This document shows positions 58 to 64,000 of a stretch of DNA of 64,000 nt, in pieces. Below the pieces are notes generated by a model. That model was not told the DNA's origin, did not search any database, and saw only the letters and a list, made by a program, of their open reading frames with translations. Each line of letters opens with the position of its first letter. Positions within the stretch are counted from its first letter, which is position 1. Source of the stretch: Nanoarchaeota archaeon SCGC AAA011-D5 (lineage in GTDB: Archaea > Nanobdellota > Nanobdellia > Pacearchaeales > GW2011-AR1). The DNA is taken from NCBI GenBank assembly GCA_000405225.1, contig ASMP01000002.1, positions 70,073 to 134,072 of the forward strand, given 5' to 3'. The position numbers and the translations under genes were made by a program.

Positions 58-270
58 TTAGATAATATTTTCTTCGATAATTTGGGAAATAGGTTTTCCC
101 GTCTTTTCCTTTATTTTCCTGAGTTTATTTATGGCTTCAACTGAGAGAGTTATATCTATTCTCTTCCTTTGAAAAGGGAGTTCCCTTGTCTTATCATATT
201 CCTCAAGCATTTCAAAGGCCTTCCTATTTTTTTTCAATATCTTATCAATTGTTCTCTTATTTAATCGCAT
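58..270 (-). CDS. Putative antitoxin / ribbon-helix-helix DNA-binding protein
   Basis: 70 aa, C-terminal RIDITLSVEAINKLRKIKEKTGKPISQII RHH-like pattern; overlaps the 3' end of the Fic/Doc gene. Confidence 0.55.
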   Translation of the reverse strand: MRLNKRTIDKILKKNRKAFEMLEEYDKTRELPFQRKRIDITLSVEAINKLRKIKEKTGKPISQIIEENII

Positions 271-38073: not shown

Positions 38074-38384
38074 AGCTAAGGCCATTCCAAAAGCACAGCT
38101 GTTCTCGTTGTTGCCATGGTTGTTCGAGTTAACATTCAACCTGTTGTTGCCCAAGTTCCTGTTGGAATTCAGACTCGCAACCCAGCTATGTAGCCAGTTT
38201 ATCTCATGAAATTTTTATTTTTCATGTCAGGAATCTTGCCTGCACAGAGCAAAATTTAATTTGCACACCATCGCTTCAAGTTTCGCAAATATTAGATATA
38301 AAAACTACTATTTGTCGCGATTGAATTTTATGACTTAAAATAAACCTGAATAATGCCTTAATAAACTGGCGTGTGGCCTTAGCT
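38074..38384 (-). ncRNA. Putative DGR template RNA (structured 5' domain + TR), bounded by long-range pairing
   Basis: 11-bp IR 38374-38384/38074-38084 encloses TR; nested 10-bp IR 38361-38370/38193-38202; hairpin 38205-38226; no avd ORF. Confidence 0.6.
38087..38183 (-). repeat. DGR template repeat (TR)
   Basis: 97 nt, 30 adenines on minus strand (12 AAY codons in target frame); differs from VR only at adenines. Confidence 0.97.
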
Positions 38385-38447
38385 CAAGCTTTTTTTAAGC
38401 TCTGCTAAGACAAATAAATAAGTAAAAACAGGTTTAAATTTTTTGCG

Positions 38448-52762: not shown

Positions 52763-53731
52763 TCAGTTTTCAACGGCTAAGACTTCGCCTGTTTCAGAGT
52801 CTATGATGACGTCTGTCTCGACTCCATTTCTTGAATCGACTATTTCAACAACATACGCTGTTTTTCCAAGTTTCGTTTCAATTGCAACATCTGTGATTTT
52901 TCCTGGAACTTCTTTTAATGCTATTTCCCTGGCTTCAGCCTCTGTTATCTTTGTTTCCAGTTGTCCAAGAAGTTTTTCAGCAGGAGTTGGCTGTGCATTA
53001 TATTCAACACTTATTAGTTCAAGCCTTTCTCCACTTTCAATACTTACTTCCAGAACGGCAAATCCAACTTCGGGGCAATAATACTTGTGCTCCTTGGCGC
53101 TTGAATCTAAATAGCTATAATCATAAGTTTTCAAACAATTGTTTAAGACTTTGTATTTTGTCGTTACTGTTTCTCCTAAAGCGAGAACATCTGCTGCATC
53201 TTCTGCCACGCCTTTATAATATTCCTGCCTATAAGAATCACCAGGAACAGGATTTGCTTTCATGATTATTCCGGGTTTCGCGCCATCGACTCCTACCTCC
53301 CAAGCACCTGCTTTATTTACAATTCTTTTATTCAGTACTTCCATAGTGTCTTCGCCGAAGTACCAGACATTTCCTTCTTTGTCCTGGGCATACCAGTCTT
53401 TTGTGTCCTCGATGAGGTTTCCATCAAGCCAGACACGGTCCCAAACAACAGTTGCTTCCACGCCCATGACTTTTTTGGTTTCTTTCATTACATAGATTTC
53501 TATTCTTTCTTTTCCATCCTGAGTCACTGATTCATAAACCATTTTTTTCCCGGGTGTCAGGGAAAAATATTTGTTATCCACATTTGAGGTAAAATCAGAG
53601 GGGTTGATTGTTGGGTTATAGGTTTCTTCTGTACCTGGTTTTTTTGAATAAAAATAAAAAAGAGAAGCGTTGATTAATAGCAAAGCTAAGACTAATACTG
53701 CGATGAGGTAAATCTTATTCATTTTCTCCAT
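52763..53731 (-). CDS. Secreted/anchored protein with C-terminal PepSY domain
   Basis: N-terminal TM; DWYAQD.EGNVWYFGE domain; ITEAEAREIALKEVPG...YVVEI PepSY. Confidence 0.8.
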   Translation of the reverse strand: MEKMNKIYLIAVLVLALLLINASLFYFYSKKPGTEETYNPTINPSDFTSNVDNKYFSLTPGKKMVYESVTQDGKERIEIYVMKETKKVMGVEATVVWDRVWLDGNLIEDTKDWYAQDKEGNVWYFGEDTMEVLNKRIVNKAGAWEVGVDGAKPGIIMKANPVPGDSYRQEYYKGVAEDAADVLALGETVTTKYKVLNNCLKTYDYSYLDSSAKEHKYYCPEVGFAVLEVSIESGERLELISVEYNAQPTPAEKLLGQLETKITEAEAREIALKEVPGKITDVAIETKLGKTAYVVEIVDSRNGVETDVIIDSETGEVLAVEN

Positions 53732-53944: not shown

Positions 53945-54892
53945 CTAGTGTCTTTTATGACCATGCACTTTCTTTATTACAACTAGAGTCAAGTCATCTT
54001 CTAGCGGACAAAAGGAGTATAATTCCCTTTTTATTGCTTCACATATCTCTTTTGCAGGTTCGTCTTTGGTCTCTCTTAATATATTTTCAAGTTTTGTGTC
54101 TCTGAATCGTGATGTCCCATCATTGTGTTCTGTCAGACCGTCTGTATAGAGGAGCATTATGTCGCCATGCCCCAAGAGGTGTATTTCATTAACATCGAAT
54201 CCTCCGTTTGTATTGTTTAGTGGGTCGAAATGTTCTGTGTTTATGCTGAATTTTCCAGGAAGGACCCCTAGCGGCGTTGACGCTTTTGTACGATCGCTGC
54301 AGAGCATCTGGATTTTATTGAATTCATTTGAAAAAATAATTGGCTGAGGATGACCTGCTGAAAGAAACCTGAAGCGTCCGTCGCCATGGATCTCTCCGTA
54401 AAGCAGGGTTGTGTACGGCTTAACCTGCAGATAATCGGGCTGCATATGTGTATAAAGATCTGAGTTAACTATTTCAAAAAGTTCTTGAGTAATCTCTCCG
54501 TTGTGATTAAGTTCATATATAATCCCTGTTTTGAACGCTCCATGCAGGTAGTTGACTATAACATTGCTCCCAATCATATGCCCTGCGACATCTGCAATCA
54601 GTATGCCGAAGCCGTCGAGATTTTTTTTTAGCCTTTCTGTCAGCACAGTATTGCCGGATTTTGTTGCCTCTGCTATTTTTTGTTTCAGTTTGTATTCCCT
54701 GAAGTTTACCAAGATAACATGATCACCGCCGATGCATCCCCTTAAAGGCTCTATGGACACGTGATAGTCTATTCCAGGAAGCCTCGGATAATTTCTTGGT
54801 AACACGAGAGATCCGACTTCCTGAAAGTGTAGCAACTCATCAACCAGTTCATCCTTTGGCCATTCCCTGATAGGTTTTATTGTATGTTTCAT
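53945..54892 (-). CDS. PP2C/SpoIIE-family Ser/Thr phosphatase
   Basis: IGGD, IADVAGH, SAGH, LYTDGL, EDDLT; ATG 54892 preferred (ORF track 54949). Confidence 0.88.
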   Translation of the reverse strand: MKHTIKPIREWPKDELVDELLHFQEVGSLVLPRNYPRLPGIDYHVSIEPLRGCIGGDHVILVNFREYKLKQKIAEATKSGNTVLTERLKKNLDGFGILIADVAGHMIGSNVIVNYLHGAFKTGIIYELNHNGEITQELFEIVNSDLYTHMQPDYLQVKPYTTLLYGEIHGDGRFRFLSAGHPQPIIFSNEFNKIQMLCSDRTKASTPLGVLPGKFSINTEHFDPLNNTNGGFDVNEIHLLGHGDIMLLYTDGLTEHNDGTSRFRDTKLENILRETKDEPAKEICEAIKRELYSFCPLEDDLTLVVIKKVHGHKRH

Positions 54893-55006
54893 AATGATAT
54901 ATCCAGAAACTTGCCACAAATTTATACAAGCGATAAGTCGCGAATACAAAAATTGTAGACGCTGCCATGACTAGAAAGCATCAAAAGAGCTTTTTGATTT
55001 ATAAGA

Positions 55007-55476: not shown

Positions 55477-56921
55477 AATCCAGTTGATCCTGCTGGCGGC
55501 TGCGGCTCTCTGGTTTGCACTTAGACATGCAAGTTGTTTCTCTTAGAAATAGGAGGAAAGCGAACTGCTCAGTAACACGTAGCTAACCTACACTTAGGTC
55601 AAGGATAACCTCGGGAAACTGAGGCTAAACCCTGATAAATGTGAGACCCTGGAAAGAACTCACATTCAAACTCGCGCCTAAGGATGGGGCTGCGGCGGAT
55701 TAGGTAGTTGGCGGGGTAATAGCCCACCAAGCCTGTGATCCGTAAGGGCTCTTAGCGGAGAGGCCCTGAGAGGGAATCTGAGACACTATTCCCAGCCCTA
55801 CGGGGTGCAGCAGTTAGGAATCATCTGCAATGCGCGAAAGCGTGACAGTTTGAACCAGAGTGCTTCTCAATTGAGAAGCTTTTGCCAAATGTAAAAAGTT
55901 TGGCGAATAAGGACTGGGTAAGACGAGTGCCAGCCGCCGCGGTAATACTCGCGGTCCAAGTCGCAGCCACAATTATTGGGTCTAAAACATCCGTAGCTTG
56001 TCTGGTAAGTTCCTTGTGAAATCTTATCTCTTGAAGATGAGGCGTGCGAGGAATACTGCCAGACTAGAGACCGGTAGACGCAGGAAGTATGTTCGAAGTA
56101 GCGGTAAAATGCTTTAATCTCGGACAGACTCACAACAGCGAAGGCATCCTGCGAGAACGGTTCTGACTGTCAGGGATGAAGGCTAGGGGCGCAAAGTGGA
56201 TTAGATACCCATGTAGTCCTAGCAGTAAACACTGCACACTAAACATCAGTACCTCCTCGAGAGGCATTGGTGCTGCAGCGAAGGCGAAGAGTGTGCTACC
56301 TGGGAAGTATAGTCGCAAGGCCGAAACTTAAAGGAATAGGCGGGGAGACACTACAACGGGTGACGCGTGCGGTTCAATTAGATTCTACACCGTGAACCTC
56401 ACCAGGACCGACAGCAGAATGAAGGTCAGTCTGAAGGGCTTACCTGACACGCTGAGAGGAGTTGCATGGCCGACGTAAGCCTGTGTCGTGAGATGACCTG
56501 TTAAATCAGGTAACAGGCGAGACCCACATGTATATTTACTACGTGTACAATATACAGATTGCCTCGGTAACGTGGATGAAAGCGTGGGCAACGTTAGGTG
56601 AGTACAGCCTGAATGCCCTGGGCGACACGCGCGCGTCAATGGTGGATACAGTGGGATGCGACTCCGAAAGGAGAAGCTAATCTCTTAAAGTCCATCTCAG
56701 TCCAGATTGAAGCTTGCAATTCAGCTTCATGACGCTGGAATCCGTAGTAATCGTTTGTTAGCAGCGAACGGTGAATACGTCACTGTCTCTTGCACTCACT
56801 GCCCGTCAAACCAACCAAGTTGTGTTATGGTGAAACCAGTTTTGGGAGAACCTTAGCATGGTGAGGTAGGTTAAGTCGTCACAAGGTATCTGTAGGGGAA
56901 CCTGCAGATGGATCACCTCCT
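55477..56921 (+). rRNA. rrs: 16S rRNA (archaeal, no intron)
   Basis: AATCCAGTTGATCCTG 5' end, GTGCCAGCCGCCGCGGTAA, 3' GGATCACCTCCT. Confidence 0.98.
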
Positions 56922-57074
56922 AAAATTTAAAGATACGAGACAAGAGAAATCACAACAAAATAATTGTTTCTACATACTCATCTAGTTTCAGAAAAGTCCA
57001 AGTGGAAAACGGGCAAGCGTTTAGTTTTTAATAATAAAAAATTTAAAAACAACTGCTGGCTCATTTTTTGTTAT

Positions 57075-57145
57075 GGGCCTGTAGTCTAATGGTAAAACAC
57101 TTCGCTTGCACCGATGAGCTCCGAGTTCGATTCTCGGCAGGTCCA
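57075..57145 (+). tRNA. tRNA-Ala(UGC), CCA not encoded
   Basis: Cloverleaf with TGC anticodon, G3:U70 pair, A73; single mismatches in D and anticodon stems. Confidence 0.92.
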
Positions 57146-57171
57146 TAAGTTTTTCTGAAATAAATTAGTTA

Positions 57172-57273: not shown

Positions 57274-58627
57274 CGTGGACGTGAAAACATGGTGAGGGAA
57301 GAAGTTCCTTTATCAGTTTGAGAAAATAACTCACAATTATTTTCAATGAGATAAGCAACGAATGGTTTTCCTGATTTAGAAGGACATACTATTACCGACG
57401 CTGTTAGATGGATGGCTTGGTTTTGGTTTCGATGAAAGACGTGGCAAGCTGCGATAAGCTTGGGGGAGCCGCATGCAAGCTTTGATCCCAAGATTTCTGA
57501 ATCGTGCACCCATGTTTACATGGTCTGCAAGAATACGCCGGGAATTGAAACATCTTAGTACCGGCAGGAAGAGAAAATAAATTAATGATTCCCCTATTAG
57601 CAGAGAGCGAAAAGGGAAGAGGGCAAACCGAATCTCCTCTTGAAAGGGAGGCAGAGATGTGGTGAGCGTAAATTCCTAAGTCGTCGAGTCAAACTTCTCT
57701 GGAATGAGAGGCCTTGGAGAGTGATAGCCTCGTAGACGAAGATGATATGGAGTTGCTTTAAAGAGTAGGGCTCCCTGGATTGGGGGTCTGAATACGGCAG
57801 GATTAACTGCCAACCCTAAATAAAACCAAAGTCCGATAGCGCACTAGTACCGCGAGGGAATGCTGAAAAGAACCCGTAACAGGGAGTGAAAAGATCTGAA
57901 ATCTAACAGTTACAGTTTGTTACTGCCCTTTCCTCTTCGGAGGATTGGGGTTGTAACGTACGTTTCGAAGAACGAGCCAGGGAGTTTATTTGTGTGGCGA
58001 GGCTAATCATCTATAATGAGTAACCGAAGCGAAAGCAAGTTGGAAACAGCGAGAGTCACACGAATCAGACCTGAAGCCAGGTGATCTAATCATGGGCAAG
58101 GTGAAGTCTTCCGAAAGGAGGATGGAGGCCTGAACCAGTGTTGTGTACATGCACTTGGATGATCTGTGATTAGGGGTGAAAAGCCTATCTAACCTGGTGA
58201 TGGCTGGTTCCTGCTGAAATATGCCTCCGTATAGTCTTGTCTAGCTTGTCGACGGTGTAAAGTACGGATAAAATTTGCAGAGGCTAATGCCTACGGAATT
58301 TTTTCCAACTCAGAATCTGTCGACTGCATAGGACAAGAAACAGGGTGTGTATGTAAGATACACCTCCGAGACCCAAAAAAGGGAGACCAGAGTTAAGGTC
58401 CCTAAATTCATGCTAAGTGCGACAAAAGGTGTCCTGGACCTGAGACACTAGGGATGTAAGCTTAGAAGCAGCTATCATTTAAAGAAAGCGTAACAGCTCA
58501 CCTATCGAGGCCCAAGGCCCTGAAAATGGACGGGGCTAAGCATGGTACCGATACTCTGGAGGCACTCGGTTTAAAATAGTATAACAAAAATCAAAGATTT
58601 TTGTGCGTCTGCCAAGATGGTAGGCGC

Positions 58628-59140
58628 GGGAAGAATTTTTTATATGAAATAGGAAAAGAAAAGGTTTTTAAACTTTAAAGTAACAACAAAATTATGAATT
58701 TGAAGACGCTCCTTACAACAAAAAAAGATGAAAGAATAATGATGGATTTTGCTAGAGGAAAGATTAATTATTTAGAGGATGGTTTTCTTCAAAAAAATTT
58801 CCCAGACTTGTTTAGAAATCTTAAAAGTTATCGCGGTAGATGGGATGAGTTTGGAGAAGAACTTGAAAGAAGGTGTATAGAAAGAACAAGAGATATTTCA
58901 CAAAGAAAGGTAGATTATGGTGCAATACTTCATAATGTTGGAGTTGCTATTCCATTTTATTTTTTTACTGCACTCGTTAATATTGTTGGTGGTCTTGGTG
59001 GGGGGATTCATAAAACCCAAGAGATGCTTGATGAGGATTTAAGACCATATATGAAACCAACTTATAAATTGGCAAATTCTAATTAAAATATAATTCACAA
59101 ATCATATTCAACGAAAGTTGATTTCATAATTAATTCTTCC
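58628..59140 (+). mobile_element. Inverted-repeat-bounded gene cassette, copy 2 (inside 23S)
   Basis: Ends match 51175-51197 and 51503-51540; left and right ends pair 9 bp + 8 bp. Confidence 0.8.
58694..59086 (+). CDS. Cassette cargo: hypothetical 130-aa protein with hydrophobic segment
   Basis: Intact ORF with upstream TTTTAAA box; no LAGLIDADG/HNH/GIY-YIG motif seen. Confidence 0.7.
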   Translation: MNLKTLLTTKKDERIMMDFARGKINYLEDGFLQKNFPDLFRNLKSYRGRWDEFGEELERRCIERTRDISQRKVDYGAILHNVGVAIPFYFFTALVNIVGGLGGGIHKTQEMLDEDLRPYMKPTYKLANSN

Positions 59141-59838
59141 TGTACTATACAGAGTGTTCTGGTAAGCAGGCGTCTTTTCTGCGTCGAAGCTTCTTCGAGA
59201 GAAGGGGTGGAGCGGAAAGGAATGAGAATCCTGGTGGTAGTAGGATGTGATTTCTCTGAGAAAGAGAAACGTCGAAAGGGTAAGGTTTCCTTGGCAATAT
59301 ATTTTAGCCAAGGGTTAGTCAGCGCCTAAGTTGTGCCCTAACAGAGTACGACGATGGACAACAGGTTAATATTCCTGTACTGATCAAATTTTACATTTTA
59401 GGAAAGCTTTCGGATAAGCAAGCACCCGGAAGGGTGTTCTGGGAAAGAGACGGGGGGAGCGTAATGCAAAGATCTCTGTGAATTTTTCAGACAAAATTTC
59501 TGACTCCGAGAGCCAGTGAAAAGTTCTAGAGTTAAACGAGTTTGGTTAGCTGTACCCACAACCGACACTGGTGCCCTAGCTGAGAAGGCTAAGACGTGAA
59601 AGGAAAAACCAACTAAGGGAATTCGGCATATTGGTCCTGTAGCTTCGGCTGAAGGGATGTCTATCTTTGTGCTTCGGTTCGCAAGAATTTTAGGTGCATC
59701 GGTAGATTACAATAACAAAGATGGCCCGACTGTTTACCAAAAACGTAGCCAAGTGCTAATCTGTAAAGACTTGTATACTTGGTGAGCCCTGCCCAGTGGC
59801 GGTGTCTGAAACCCCTTTTCAAGGGGGCTAATGCCCGT

Positions 59839-59875
<37 letters not shown>

Positions 59876-60519
59876 GTAATGCCTTGTCGTCTGAATGGCG
59901 ACGTGCATGAATGGGTTAACGTGGTTGTCACTGTCCCTAGTTGGGACCTTCTGAACACACTTCGTGGTGAAAAGGCCACGGACGCCTAGTGGGAAGCGGA
60001 GACCTTGTGGAACTTTACTGCAACTTGTTGTTGTAATTTTAAGTGGAATGCATAGAATAGGTAGGAGCGTCGAGTCCCTCTTTTCGGAGGGGGAGGAGCG
60101 AAAGTGTAATACTACCCATTTTTATTAGAATTGCTTACCGTTTACGGAACAGCAGCAGGCGGGCAGTTTGGCTGGGGCGGCGCCCTGTCGAAAAGATATC
60201 GATAGGACCCAAAGTCAAGCTCATCCGGCTTGGAAACCCGGAGTTGAGTGCGAGGGCAAAAGCTTGACTGACTGTATTCTGAAAAGCAAGGAATGCAGGG
60301 ACGAAAGTCTGGCCTAGTGAACCCACGTGCTTTTTTAATAGAAGCCGTGTCTGATAGAAAAGTTACCCCAAGGATAACAGGCTTGTCGCACCCGATAGTC
60401 CATATTGACGGTGCGGTTTGGTACATCGCTGTCGGCTCTACCTATCCTGCGCGTGCAGAAGCGTGCAAGGGTGTCGGAGTTCACGCATTAAAAGGTATCG
60501 TTAGCTGGGTTAAGAACGT

Positions 60520-60842
60520 CAAAAATAGACCCAATTAACAGATAAGTACTGAACAAAGAACTTGACAAGCAAAAAATAAATAATTAACGCGGCGTTGCGC
60601 ACGAGTAATTGTGCGAAAAATAAAATCAGCTCATATCGGTGGAGGCTTGATGTTTAAATTGATTAAACTGTCAGCATCATGTTAATACCGAGGGAAGTCG
60701 TAATTGACCCCGTAGAGACTTAGAGTTTAAAACTCTGGAGTTCTGCTGTTAAAAGCAGAGCTAAGACGCTGATCTCCGTTGTGCAAACAACGGATGAAGG
60801 TATAGTCCATACAACACAAAATCATAAGTGTTGAGTAATATA
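60520..60842 (+). mobile_element. Group I intron (IA-like) at 23S position 2593, no homing endonuclease
   Basis: Exons GAACGT|CGCGAGACAG; IGS 60588-60596; P3 60625-60630/60768-60773; R GAGACT 60715-60720; S AAGGTATAGTCC 60797-60808; P8 with GCAA loop. Confidence 0.92.
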
Positions 60843-61099
60843 CGCGAGACAGTTTGTATGATATCTACTAGGTGTGTTGTTGTCTGAGTGGAACGAACTT
60901 GTAGTACGAGAGGAACCAGGTTCGGGAGCCTCTGGTGAGCAGTTGTCATCTGGCAGGCTGCATAGCTACGCTCCATACGGATAAGAGCTGAATGCATCTA
61001 AGCTCGAAGCCGCCCGCAAAACGAGACAACTAAGGCCGTCATAGAAGATGACGTTGATAGAGTTGGGGTGTAAGATTCAAGCTTTTGGTGAGGCGAGAA

Positions 61100-61217
61100 T
61101 TTCAGCCCACAACTACTAAAAGCCTCAATTTGAATTTTCTTTATAAGAAGATTCTATAATATGTTATGTCCACACAATTCTTTTTCAGAAAACCATTCGT
61201 TGTTTGTTGAGTTTTTT
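61100..61217 (+). repeat. 23S 3'-end repeat copy 1 (118 bp identical to 61891-62008)
   Basis: Exact direct repeat; first 39 bp also at 62571-62609. Confidence 0.95.
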
Positions 61218-61221
61218 GATT

Positions 61222-61542
61222 TTAATATCCAAATCTTCTTTCATAAGTCTTATGATCCATCCATTCAAGAATAATGGAGAAAACCAAGAGATTTTTTCCT
61301 TCTACACTATAAATCAATCTCCAAGCATCAGGCAAGTTATATTTCCATAAATTTTTAACATTATATTTTTTTAGGTATTCTTTTGGAATTAGCTTTTTAG
61401 GAATTTGTATTCCGCAAAAAGCATTATTTTCTATATCTTCAAAAGCTCTAGAAATGAGTCCATACATACTAGTGTCTTCATCTTCTAGTTTATGAAATGC
61501 ATTTTTTATTTTTTCACTGACAAACTGGATCTTACTTCTCAT
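61222..61542 (-). CDS. RelE/ParE-family toxin
   Basis: NLWKYNLPDAWRLIY...WMDHKTYERRFGY. Confidence 0.8.
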   Translation of the reverse strand: MRSKIQFVSEKIKNAFHKLEDEDTSMYGLISRAFEDIENNAFCGIQIPKKLIPKEYLKKYNVKNLWKYNLPDAWRLIYSVEGKNLLVFSIILEWMDHKTYERRFGY

Positions 61543-61831
61543 TTTTTCGCCACATAAGATGTGTTTTTTTCAACAACTTTTCAACATCTTTGGGATAATA
61601 AATCCATCCTATCTTCCCTTCAGAATCTACAGAAACCTTTCCAGATACTATCAGATAATCCAATATCAAGGAGAAAGTCTGATACATTACTCCCTTAGGA
61701 AGAGCACTCCAAAGCTGTTTTTTCCTGAACTCTCCGTCATGTTCTTTTATGAATTCCTCTACAAAAAGCACAGTATCCAGTCTAGGAAACCTTGCCGAAG
61801 GATTTTCTTTCCTTAACATGCTAAATGTCAT
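61532..61831 (-). CDS. Putative antitoxin (winged helix)
   Basis: PRLDTVLFVEEFI...YQTF..ILDYL; overlaps the toxin start. Confidence 0.65.
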   Translation of the reverse strand: MTFSMLRKENPSARFPRLDTVLFVEEFIKEHDGEFRKKQLWSALPKGVMYQTFSLILDYLIVSGKVSVDSEGKIGWIYYPKDVEKLLKKTHLMWRKNEK

Positions 61832-61890
61832 GGTTATATCAATTGATATACCTTTATAAATTTTTGGATTTTCTTATTTAGTTTAGGCTG

Positions 61891-62008
61891 TTTCAGCCCA
61901 CAACTACTAAAAGCCTCAATTTGAATTTTCTTTATAAGAAGATTCTATAATATGTTATGTCCACACAATTCTTTTTCAGAAAACCATTCGTTGTTTGTTG
62001 AGTTTTTT
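61891..62008 (+). repeat. 23S 3'-end repeat copy 2
   Basis: Identical to 61100-61217. Confidence 0.95.
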
Positions 62009-62047
62009 TATGATAAATCTTTTATACTTATATTTCCTTGTCTGTTC

Positions 62048-62359
62048 ATGAAGGAGTATTCTCTTTTATTTGATAAAGAATTTGTTAAAGCATACAGAAA
62101 ACTGGACAAATCGCTTCAGATAGAGGGAGACAAAAAACTTAAAAGATTAAAAATAAATCCAAGAGAGATTGGGAAACCTTTAAGATTTTTTCCAAATTTA
62201 TATGAATTGCATTTGAGGATGTACAGAATTTATTATGTGGTTGAGGAAGCAGAGATAAAGGTTCTCCTTCTGTCTATTTTGCACAAAGATGAGCAGGATA
62301 GATTTCTAAGAAGTCTAACAAAGGAAAGGATAAAGAGAATTATCGAAGAGAATTTCTAA
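62048..62359 (+). CDS. RelE/ParE-family toxin
   Basis: FDKEFVKAYRKL...NPREIGKPL...YELHLRMYRIYY; ATG 62048 preferred (ORF track 61952). Confidence 0.8.
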   Translation: MKEYSLLFDKEFVKAYRKLDKSLQIEGDKKLKRLKINPREIGKPLRFFPNLYELHLRMYRIYYVVEEAEIKVLLLSILHKDEQDRFLRSLTKERIKRIIEENF

Positions 62360-62507
62360 AGAATTCTTGTTCTGAAATGTAATTTCCAGAATTGATTCTA
62401 TTTAATGCTTCAGACAAATTTCTAATTAGTTTCCTGTTCATCAAAACAGCCAAGGCTCTCTTTAGCTCTTGGTTCTCTTCTCTTAGATTCTTCATTGCAG
62501 TATCCAT
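62340..62507 (-). CDS. Putative 55-aa antitoxin, convergent with toxin (not in ORF track)
   Basis: MDTAMKNLREENQELKRALAVLMNRKLIRNLSEALNRINSGNYISEQEFFRNSLR; upstream AAAAGTTTAAAAA promoter. Confidence 0.6.
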   Translation of the reverse strand: MDTAMKNLREENQELKRALAVLMNRKLIRNLSEALNRINSGNYISEQEFFRNSLR

Positions 62508-62570
62508 ATTTATCCTAAATGCCCAAAGTTTTTAAACTTTTACCCTGTTTTTAGGTTTCTTCGGCGACTG

Positions 62571-62644
62571 TTTCAGCCCACAACTACTAAAAGCCTCAAT
62601 TTGAATTTTATGTCTGGAAGAATCAGGAAAACCATTCGTTGCTT
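62571..62644 (+). repeat. 23S 3'-end repeat copy 3 (probable original) with perfect processing-stem strand
   Basis: 39-bp core, plus 62621-62644 is the exact reverse complement of pre-23S 57353-57376. Confidence 0.9.
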
Positions 62645-62654
62645 GTTGAGTTTT

Positions 62655-63038
62655 TTATCTCATTCTAACTAAACTCTTCAATACCCACCCATAATATGTT
62701 CCCTGATATCTGCTATCTGAAACAATTATCTTAACCCAATCGCCCTGTTCTTCTTCAATTAAAACTCGTACGCCCCCATTACAAAAATTGTCTGATTCAG
62801 GCAGCACATAATTAGATGCAAAATTTCCATTATCTGTTGGTTCTGTAAATAAAGGAACGGGTCCATTATCAATGCAAGTTCCATCGTCTTCTACTAAACT
62901 TAGATATCCTACTATTAAATTTTCAGAATTATTTGAAGAGGTTGCTTCTTTAGATAAAAATGGACTAGCAACAATACCAAGAATTATCAAACCAATGATG
63001 GCAGTTAAAATTGGATGTTTCTTTATCCAAGCATTCAT
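62655..63038 (-). CDS. Membrane-anchored protein with SH3-like C-terminus
   Basis: N-terminal TM; EEQGDWVKI...YYGWV pattern. Confidence 0.55.
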   Translation of the reverse strand: MNAWIKKHPILTAIIGLIILGIVASPFLSKEATSSNNSENLIVGYLSLVEDDGTCIDNGPVPLFTEPTDNGNFASNYVLPESDNFCNGGVRVLIEEEQGDWVKIIVSDSRYQGTYYGWVLKSLVRMR

Positions 63039-63088
63039 ACATTTTATAATTTCTCAAGCTATTTATATGTTGCTTTCATTCGTGCTTA

Positions 63089-63523
63089 TCAGTTGTTTTG
63101 TTTTTCCAAATCTAATCTTTTAAAAAATTCCTCTTCATTTCTTTCAATCATTTCCATCTCTTTCTCTATGTCTTCCTTAGCTTTGCTTTTACAATCAGCA
63201 CAGGAATCAAAAAAAAGAGGATTGTAATATTTCTTTTTACAATATTCACACAAGCGTAAACCTCTCTCTTCAATAAAATGACATTTTTTACATATAGTAG
63301 TTACTTTTGCTTCCTCATTGAAATATTCCTTTTTTGCTTTTTCCATTGCTTTCTCCAATCTCTCATAGTATCCTACTTCCTTTTTTGCTTTTTCCAAAGA
63401 GTCCCTGAAAGGAACTTCGTGATGAATTCCTAATTTTTCCTCACTGCCACATCTTTCGCATCTATCTTTAATTTTTCTCTCTTTAAATTGCTTGAATTCT
63501 TTAGTTCTCCAAATGTTTTTCAT
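63089..63523 (-). CDS. HNH-like Zn-binding protein
   Basis: CERCG..LGIHHEVP...TTICKKCH, further CxxC pairs. Confidence 0.65.
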   Translation of the reverse strand: MKNIWRTKEFKQFKERKIKDRCERCGSEEKLGIHHEVPFRDSLEKAKKEVGYYERLEKAMEKAKKEYFNEEAKVTTICKKCHFIEERGLRLCEYCKKKYYNPLFFDSCADCKSKAKEDIEKEMEMIERNEEEFFKRLDLEKQNN

Positions 63524-63569
63524 TTTTTCCTTTTATTCTAAACTATCTGTGCTTGTCTTAATTGTTTTT

Positions 63570-63992
63570 CTATTTAAAATATTCTGTAATTAAATCGAAT
63601 ATCATCTGTGGATTTTTATTATCTAATTCAGTTTTATTACTAATATGATAAAGTGAATGGGTTTTGTCATTGGCATCGTCTTTAAATTGCTCAGATAACT
63701 GAAGAATTCTTAACACTAGTTTTTTTTCTTGGGGGTCAAAAGCAGAGGCCTTATTTCTCAAATTTTTAATTAGGATAGATAAATCATGGGTTCGCCCCTC
63801 TGCTAAATCCAAGTATAATTCTTTTTCCTGTTTGGTATTATTTGGGAATTTCTTTTTTATCATTTCTGTAATTAAATTTTCTATAACTTTTCTTATCAAA
63901 ATAAATGAGGCAGTATAACAATTATGTGTATAACACCTGTTTATTTCATCTAAATGTGCCCTTAAAAATTTGTTCTGGGTTGTATATGTCAC
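63570..63992 (-). CDS. HEPN/DUF4145-like hypothetical protein (may extend beyond window)
   Basis: ASFILIRKVIENL helix, NDKTH; start at window edge uncertain. Confidence 0.5.
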   Translation of the reverse strand: MTYTTQNKFLRAHLDEINRCYTHNCYTASFILIRKVIENLITEMIKKKFPNNTKQEKELYLDLAEGRTHDLSILIKNLRNKASAFDPQEKKLVLRILQLSEQFKDDANDKTHSLYHISNKTELDNKNPQMIFDLITEYFK

Positions 63993-64000
63993 AAACTCTA

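Follow-up and report, generated by a model that had tools for sequence, protein, structure and literature searches.

Can a group I intron do without the guanosine that closes introns of its kind? Textbooks treat this terminal guanosine (ωG) as essentially invariant in the group I mechanism, because one and the same pocket binds the exogenous guanosine in step 1 of splicing and ωG in step 2; the one accepted natural exception, to our knowledge, is an intron of Coxiella. The question is raised by the archaeal large-subunit (LSU, 23S-like) rRNA gene in the 64-kb stretch of DNA analysed here (the window), which lies at 57384-61139 on the plus strand, matches the archaeal LSU model of Rfam (RF02540) with 2069.5 bits, and is 3756 nt long against 2987 nt in the model. 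It holds a 323-base insert at 60520-60842 (+), and this insert is a group I intron whose last base is A. With a probability of about 0.7, we read it as an intron of a mobile lineage that has lost its endonuclease gene, of subgroup IA3, belonging to the I-CreI/L2593 lineage and seated in helix 93 of a DPANN LSU rRNA, a member of an archaeal sub-clade that ends in A (ωA) with an unchanged P7 pocket, and most likely identical to the catalogued intron IA3.5.

The boundaries can be read from the host gene. In the Rfam archaeal LSU alignment, helix 93 reads GAACGUC, followed by 327 nt where the model has 4 and then by GACAG, a net insertion of 323 nt at 60520-60842; the site is what we take to be the one after U2593 (L2593) in the numbering of E. 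coli 23S rRNA. The intron ends ..GAGUAAUAUA, with A60842 as its last base in the place of ωG. A 1-nt ambiguity of the boundary arises in the window intron because C60520 equals C60843. Nine of the 40 full ωA introns described below start with A or U and all nine end in A; there the terminal A is unambiguous, because exon base C2594 can come only from the 3' side. The uninterrupted LSU junction of the same lineage, GTTAGCTGGGTTAAGAACGT-CGYGAGACAGTTTGTAT (...GGGUUAAGAACGU|CGYGAGACAG..., with AACGU|CGYGAGAC at the joint), occurs in at least 120 metagenome contigs. Among the matches listed, exon position 2596 of these intron-less contigs is C in 89 and U in 31; the best of these matches reach 92-96% identity when set against the window's exons joined without the intron. 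A reading made beforehand from the letters of the window (the sequence-only reading) had already proposed an IA-type group I intron at L2593 ending in A, and had argued that the restoration of helix 93 demands A60842 as the last base. The LSU gap, the fold and the relatives uphold the former claim; the intron-less alleles, the relatives starting with A or U, and the covariation of P9.0 and P10 uphold the latter.

Homology and fold assign the insert to the group I family. A profile hidden Markov model trained solely on 23 ωG introns at L2593 that lack an endonuclease gene, from sources labelled as candidate phyla radiation (CPR) bacteria, Gammaproteobacteria and a few archaea, matches 60583-60822 with E=4.9e-25, the sole match in 64 kb (nhmmer). 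The alignment to this profile starts at the guide sequence, so the first ~63 nt of the window intron are extra relative to the ωG introns. On an alignment of 18 endonuclease-less ωA introns (alignment A1), a structure drawn by hand has 95.2% of its cells paired, compared with 32-39% when the partners are slid. Double changes are found in 25 of its 53 pairs, and neither the covariation score nor the paired fraction is equalled by any of 500 shuffles; P2, P3, P7.2, P8, P9, P9.0 and P10 all contribute. Folded as a single strand, the intron region has a z-score of -5.2. On its homology and all its other features, the window intron is classed here as a predicted ω-variant of the group I family.

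The terminal A is found far beyond the window. One genome per species, from 185,579 species, was scanned with the pattern TATAGTCC-N{15,45}-CGYGAGACAGTT, in which the base before the 3' exon is left free and which is therefore neutral to ω; at least 119 loci (L001-L119) were obtained. Among the 119 matches listed, the base in question is G in 71, A in 47, T in 1 and C in 1. The two loci preceded by T and C were rejected as introns, being chance matches. Full introns were recovered from 105 of the listed loci, and 40 of these end in A. All 40 share one DPANN-type LSU exon context, GUUAGCUGGGUUAAGAACGU|...|CGYGAGACAGUUUGUAUGAU, and their records are labelled Woesearchaeota, Pacearchaeota or Nanoarchaeota, save three with bacterial labels. 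These three (L015, L049 and L060, binned as Vogelbacteria, Saccharibacteria and Bacteroidetes) carry ωA introns in archaeal LSU rRNA and are therefore probably mis-binned DPANN contigs. The comparison marks ωA as an inherited trait of a large clade of DPANN introns, present in at least 40 species-level genomes. The sequence-only reading had called a terminal A rare, with Coxiella as the known case; G is indeed near-universal otherwise, but the A of the window is not private, since at least 40 DPANN genomes share it. When the sites L1917, L1923 and L1931 were searched by pattern for further introns, the hosts of ωA introns yielded none, and the matches in other genomes were messy.

The catalytic core is the same on both sides of this divide. 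The string GUAGAGACU (J6/7 and 5' strand of P7) is identical in 39 ωA introns and in 63 of 64 ωG introns, the odd one differing in one base of J6/7; the four bases preceding it vary somewhat among the compared introns. UAUAGUCC (J8/7 and 3' strand of P7), a string that was part of the search pattern, is invariant in 103 of 103 introns compared. No compensating change was found in the guanosine pocket, the core being identical in the ωA and ωG sets, and the pocket in P7 is, to judge from these strings, unchanged in the ωA clade. The frequent differences between the two sets lie elsewhere: in the base after the 5' strand of P7 (U in ωA, G in ωG), in the third pair of P9.0, and in the geometry of P10, a correlation that fits compensation by P9.0 and P10 for the missing ωG. 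A rough neighbour-joining tree of the core (41 sequences, identity distances) suggests a single broad ωA group within which a small number of ωG introns fall, and is too weak for a statement of strict monophyly. Two archaeal introns have nearly identical tails of P9 and P9.0, one (L071) ending ..AACAU-A|CGCG and the other (L098) ..AACAU-UG|CGCG; the two may be the trace of a change from one ω state to the other.

Two of the ωA loci have peculiarities of their own. In L020, a locus that contains an N, the ωA intron is preceded by a degenerate repeat of the exon junction (GTGAGCTGGGTTAAGATCGT-CGTGAGGCAGATTGTATGATATC), placed about 242 nt before the 3' exon, as if the 3' domain of the LSU had been partly duplicated or rearranged. 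In L060, a tRNA-like match of 54 bits lies at 154-225 (-), on the opposite strand within the stretch aligned to the archaeal LSU model.

The helices on either side of ω vary together with their partners. P10 is contiguous in 38 of 38 ωA introns, starting at exon base 1 and spanning 3-6 bp, mostly 4 bp. Exon base 2596 and its partner in the guide form C:G in 26 and U:A in 12 of these introns, with no exceptions. On the intron side, P9.0 is AUA/UAU in 17 ωA introns, ACA/UGU in nine, ACC/GGU in six, ACU/AGU in five and AUG/CAU in one, and in each case the A follows directly. This pattern indicates that the helices abutting ω, and hence the splice site, are probably under selection. Among ωG introns with bacterial-type exons, 54 of 56 have an offset P10, in which C2594 stands opposite an unpaired U and pairing begins at G2595.

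The window intron has all elements of the core, given here from 5' to 3' and all on the plus strand. The 5' strand of P1, AACGU (60515-60519), ends in U60519, the splice-site U, and pairs with GCGUU at 60592-60596; it is invariant in 18 of 18 aligned relatives. An expanded, AT-rich L1 of 67 nt and 24% G+C (60521-60587) leads to the internal guide CGCG-GCGUU (60588-60596), of which CGCG (60588-60591) belongs to P10 and GCGUU (60592-60596) to P1. The P2 hairpin (60598-60615; CGCAC/GUGCG around the loop GAGUAAUU) has double compensatory changes at five of five pairs. P3 is formed by AUCAGC (60625-60630) and GCUGAU (60768-60773), with compensatory changes at three of six pairs and 100% of cells paired. 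P4 (UCGGUG, 60636-60641, with UACCGA, 60686-60691) encloses a short P5/P5a within 60636-60691 and has 91.7% of cells paired, and P6 is a short hairpin at 60692-60711 (GGG..GUCG UAAU UGAC CCC). J6/7 and the 5' strand of P7 follow at 60712-60720 (GUA-G-A-GACU with the second A bulged), the P7 strings being the same as in IA3.5. P7 itself is predicted to consist of G60715, the bulged A60716 and GACU (60717-60720) with AGUCC (60804-60808), and to contain the canonical guanosine-binding pair G60717-C60807. P7.1 (60722-60736) and P7.2 (60739-60762), the hallmark of IA introns, occupy 60722-60762, and four of five pairs of P7.2 are compensatory; so are three of the four outer pairs of the P8 hairpin (60775-60794). 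J8/7 (UGAAGGUAU) and the 3' strand of P7, AGUCC, lie at 60795-60808, where C60807 is the partner of G60717. P9.0 (AUA, 60809-60811, with UAU, 60839-60841) surrounds P9 (CAACAC, 60812-60817, with GUGUUG, 60828-60833) within 60809-60841, and two of its three pairs are compensatory in alignment A1.

The ω position, 60842 (+), is A. It sits between the 3-bp P9.0 (AUA/UAU) and a 4-bp P10 (CGCG/CGCG), the exon strand of which is the start of the 3' exon, CGCG at 60843-60846 (+; C2594-G2597), at once part of the closing pair and tetraloop of helix 93. The intron, of type IA3 and without an open reading frame (ORF), is thus delimited at 60520-60842 by the LSU gap, the nhmmer match, the covariation and the agreement with IA3.5. 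The sequence-only reading had described a full core with an intact G-C pair in P7 and extra P7.1/P7.2 hairpins, a 5' splice site after 60519 set by a U•G pair with the guide GCGTT, and a P10 between CGCG and the 3' exon. Every element it named was recovered where it had been placed and the fold covaries; P1 is AACGU/GCGUU with U60519•G60592, and P10 joins 60588-60591 to 60843-60846 with covariation at exon position 2596.

The expanded L1 is not seen in the bacterial ωG relatives, in which some 10 nt separate the guide from the 5' splice site. It had been put forward as a possible remnant of a homing endonuclease, an idea that finds no support: tblastn with the endonuclease of a relative gives E>2, and the ORFs of relatives lie outside L1. 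In the endonuclease-bearing ωA relatives these ORFs begin 129-282 nt into the intron and the guide stands at nt 10-100; because the ORF starts well downstream of the guide sequence, it is not in L1. A different feature of L1 is a candidate helix, here called helix X, between GACCCAAUUAAC in L1 (60528-60539, +) and GUUAGCUGGGUU in the 5' exon (60500-60511, +; exon positions -20 to -9), complementary over 11 of 12 bp with G•U included. The minimum free energy fold of 60505-60860 pairs UGGGUU with GACCCA. Relatives have GCUAAC, CCAGUUAA(U) or CCCAAGUUAAU at the corresponding place, which pair with the same exon stretch in other registers, and minimum-energy folds recover helix X in eight of 14 cases. 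Its contiguous complementarity is not significant against per-sequence shuffles; because of this, and because the exon is invariant, helix X is only a lead. Pseudoknotted with P1, it might tether the 5' exon.

Endonuclease genes are found in other members of the clade. Full-length ORFs of 151-163 amino acids with LAYIAGFLDGDGS occur in 13 ωA introns of 735-840 nt. Three of the 13 were compared with Pfam and match LAGLIDADG_1 (E about 1e-13); for one compared with the Protein Data Bank, the nearest entries are I-CvuI, I-CreI and I-MsoI, with E values of 1e-23 to 1e-30 for single-chain entries and of about 1e-28 to 1e-30 for I-CvuI/I-CreI. The window intron has no ORF, nor do at least 17 other ωA introns, and the endonuclease gene, optional in the L2593 lineage, is thus absent from it. 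With a relative's endonuclease as query (tblastn, E>2), no endonuclease similarity was detected in the window intron, whose P6 is minimal, and tblastn found no I-CreI-like gene elsewhere in the 64-kb window. The ωA locus L031, whose intron bears an endonuclease ORF, has an intron-less counterpart: a contig that matches its joined exons with 98.98% identity over 686 nt. Such an intron beside near-identical intron-less exons is the presence/absence pattern expected of a mobile intron, and the ωA lineage is or was, by this evidence, probably mobile.

We infer splicing at A|C by RNA catalysis. Step 1 would be canonical, an exogenous guanosine held at G60717-C60807 attacking after U60519, which is itself held by its U•G pair with G60592. 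In step 2 the 3'-OH of U60519 would attack the phosphodiester between A60842 and C60843, a bond positioned chiefly by the 3-bp P9.0 on the intron side and by a G+C-rich P10 of 3-6 bp that would begin at the very first exon base and stack directly on P1, while ωA would dock weakly in the guanosine pocket. Ligation of the exons would rebuild the stem of helix 93 and its GCGA tetraloop, with the junction ...GAACGU-CGCGAGAC... A broader proposal can be advanced tentatively, at somewhat less than even odds: that a mobile lineage in at least 40 species-level genomes has stably exchanged ωG for ωA, that its second step is set by P9.0 and an extended P10 and not by guanosine recognition, and that the exchange could be advantageous. 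If this is true, ωA could suppress 3'-splice-site hydrolysis, intron circularisation and reverse splicing in an essential rRNA gene.

Several points weigh against the reading preferred here. In the group I ribozymes that serve as models, a change of ωG to A severely impairs step 2, so that efficient unaided splicing is no given. The Rfam family Intron_gpI (RF00028) gives the intron 17.4 bits (E=0.038), below its gathering score, and its alignment takes G60833, where P9 ends, for the terminal G, a placement that does not fit the exon junction. P10 averages 3.9 bp in the ωA clade and 2.2 bp in those ωG introns that have archaeal-type exons; with just six of the latter as comparators, this contrast is correlative and does not test compensation. 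What equates the window intron with IA3.5 is a set of shared descriptors. The Rfam placement has a bearing on annotation as well: tools that close an intron at the last G, as this model does here, would put the 3' boundary 9 nt off in such DPANN rRNA genes.

The alternative that survives best, although unlikely, accepts splicing at ωA as real and denies its autonomy: the second step or the folding would need a host factor or a LAGLIDADG maturase in trans, which would relax the need for recognition of ωG. The strongly deleterious effect of the change to A in model ribozymes speaks for such help. Some members of the ωA clade do encode LAGLIDADG proteins, and such proteins can act as maturases (PMC11270868), but no ORF is present in the window intron or in at least 17 further members of the clade, and the rest of the 64-kb window lacks an I-CreI-like gene; the ω-variant intron of Coxiella, moreover, self-splices according to the title of its paper (cited in PMC11270868).

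An intron that stays unspliced or is partly active, whether kept in the mature rRNA or lodged in a decaying rRNA gene, is improbable. Retention has a precedent in the 23S rRNA of Simkania, by the title 'An unspliced group I intron in 23S rRNA' (cited in PMC11270868 and PMC1995217), and a ribozyme in decay might well lose its ωG. Selection would have no hold on P1, P10 and P9.0, however, if the intron were never spliced; in fact P10 tracks the exon polymorphism in all 38 introns and the core covaries. The insertion also splits helix 93 beside the peptidyl-transferase centre, and an active mobile element is suggested by the full-length endonuclease ORFs and by near-identical exons that differ in the presence or absence of the intron.

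Two further explanations are both very improbable. The first shifts the true ω upstream to G60833 or G60835 and leaves 7-9 extra bases (..(AG)UAAUAUA) in helix 93. It can appeal to the end of the Rfam Intron_gpI alignment on G60833, but the score of this alignment does not reach the gathering cutoff, and G60833 is simply where P9 ends; the covarying P9.0 (60839-60841) and P10 (60843-60846) bracket A60842, intron-less relatives have no extra bases, and the LSU model expects a 4-nt loop. In the second, a bulge-helix-bulge (BHB) endonuclease and a ligase remove the insert, and the 3' end of the ribozyme becomes irrelevant. BHB introns are the usual introns of archaeal rRNA and have been proposed to descend from group I introns (PMC6125680). 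A scan of 40 ωA junctions in any register, however, gave no consistent 3-4-3 motif, most having at most three of four central and two of six flanking pairs, and the covariation of P10 would be left unexplained; BHB excision was rejected, since the junctions carry no BHB motif. That A60842 is an error of sequencing or assembly, or a mutation private to this genome, has nothing but the rarity of ωA in its favour and can be dismissed, because at least 40 related archaeal genomes share the terminal A; beyond the window it recurs in 46 genomes, assembled independently in many studies, between flanking helices that have diverged.

The rRNA operon that hosts the intron comprises, upstream of the LSU gene, the small-subunit (SSU) rRNA gene (55477-56921, Rfam) and, between the two, tRNA-Ala(UGC) at 57074-57146. 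The DNA around it has a G+C content of about 27-46%. No 5S rRNA gene was found at Rfam gathering scores 3' of the LSU gene (61140-64000) or elsewhere in the 64 kb. The LSU gene has a second insertion of 582 nt (58569-59150), between positions 1290 and 1324 of the archaeal LSU model, which holds an ATG-initiated ORF (58694-59086, 130 amino acids) without Pfam match. Nothing similar is present in the LSU genes of the 119 related loci, and no Rfam family matches it; the strands CACUC and GAGUG at its flanks could lengthen the host helix. The first ORF downstream of the LSU gene (61952-62359) contains a ParE-toxin domain (E=2.9e-6). Just upstream of the operon lie two adjoining ORFs, one (52763-53731, -) with a PepSY domain and, weakly and below threshold, a likeness to aerolysin (E=2.3e-4), the other (53945-54949, -) with a SpoIIE/PP2C phosphatase domain. 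An RT-16 RNA motif (105 bits) is located at 38185-38410 (-), of a family that we take to be associated with reverse transcriptases. The ORFs examined near it are Mre11-like, Rad50/SbcC-like, RNase J-like or without Pfam match, and no reverse transcriptase is among them.

Group I introns at L2593 of DPANN archaea are already known. Nawrocki, Jones and Eddy (2018, NAR, PMC6125680) list 12 archaeal IA3 introns, ten of them at LSU/2593, in Woesearchaeota, Pacearchaeota and Micrarchaeota where phyla are given; one, IA3.1, carries its endonuclease insertion in P6. Their IA3.5 (ASMP01000002.1:130592-130914) is 323 nt long, has the P7 strands GAGACUU/UAGUCC, a P1 that starts 5 nt upstream and no endonuclease gene, is labelled Nanoarchaeota in GenBank and Pacearchaeota by RDP, and scores E=7e-33 with the IA3 model (PMC6125680). 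The window intron agrees with it in site, subgroup, host type, length, P7 strands, start of P1 and lack of an endonuclease gene, and is probably this intron, already catalogued, the match being one of descriptors and not of a sequence comparison. If the two are the same, the published end coordinate implies a terminal A. The contig of the published IA3.4 (JWKY01000014.1, our L057) also has an intron that ends in A. The text of PMC6125680 makes no mention of ω, splice sites or P10, and the clade-wide ωA, the covariation of P9.0 and P10 and the expanded L1 are not described there. In the searchable literature we found neither the ωA state nor its conservation in at least 40 species-level genomes, nor the covariation at the splice site, nor the contiguous, extended P10.

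Compared with the BHB introns of archaeal rRNA, the window intron is alike as an intervening sequence in an archaeal rRNA gene, a kind of element some of which have LAGLIDADG genes, and unlike in having a full group I core in place of a BHB motif at its junctions. Much closer are the L2593 introns of bacteria and organelles, such as Cr.LSU of Chlamydomonas with I-CreI and those of Thermosynechococcus and Synechococcus, with which it shares the site, the architecture and the core of J6/7-P7 and J8/7-P7'. L2593 introns are characterised by a short P2, a short P5 and the P7.1/P7.2 extension (Haugen et al. 2007, PMC1995217). The ωA relatives of the window intron further share homologues of I-CreI, I-CvuI and I-MsoI with the bacterial and organellar introns. 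The latter, however, end in G, have AUG/CAU or GUG/CAC as P9.0, a P10 offset by one base and a guide that follows the 5' splice site after about 10 nt, whereas the window intron has ωA, an L1 of 67 nt and a P10 that adjoins P1 directly, and lacks an endonuclease gene.

With respect to ω, the counterpart is Cbu.L1917 of Coxiella burnetii, which Raghavan et al. reportedly described in J Bacteriol in 2007 and which is said to end in A, to self-splice in vitro and to belong to a different subgroup. A title cited in PMC11270868 states that the self-splicing intron of Coxiella 23S rRNA 'lacks the canonical omegaG'. Both are natural rRNA group I introns in which ωG is replaced in an otherwise canonical core. 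They differ in site, L2593 against L1917, and in distribution, a multi-species and partly endonuclease-bearing archaeal clade against a single bacterial species. The exception described here is therefore a diverse archaeal clade with built-in comparators, namely same-site ωG sisters with an identical core and the near-identical pair L071/L098. It allows tests of how a 3' splice site is chosen without recognition of a guanosine, of compensation by P9.0 and P10, and of the loss of ωG in relation to hydrolysis, circle formation and reverse splicing.

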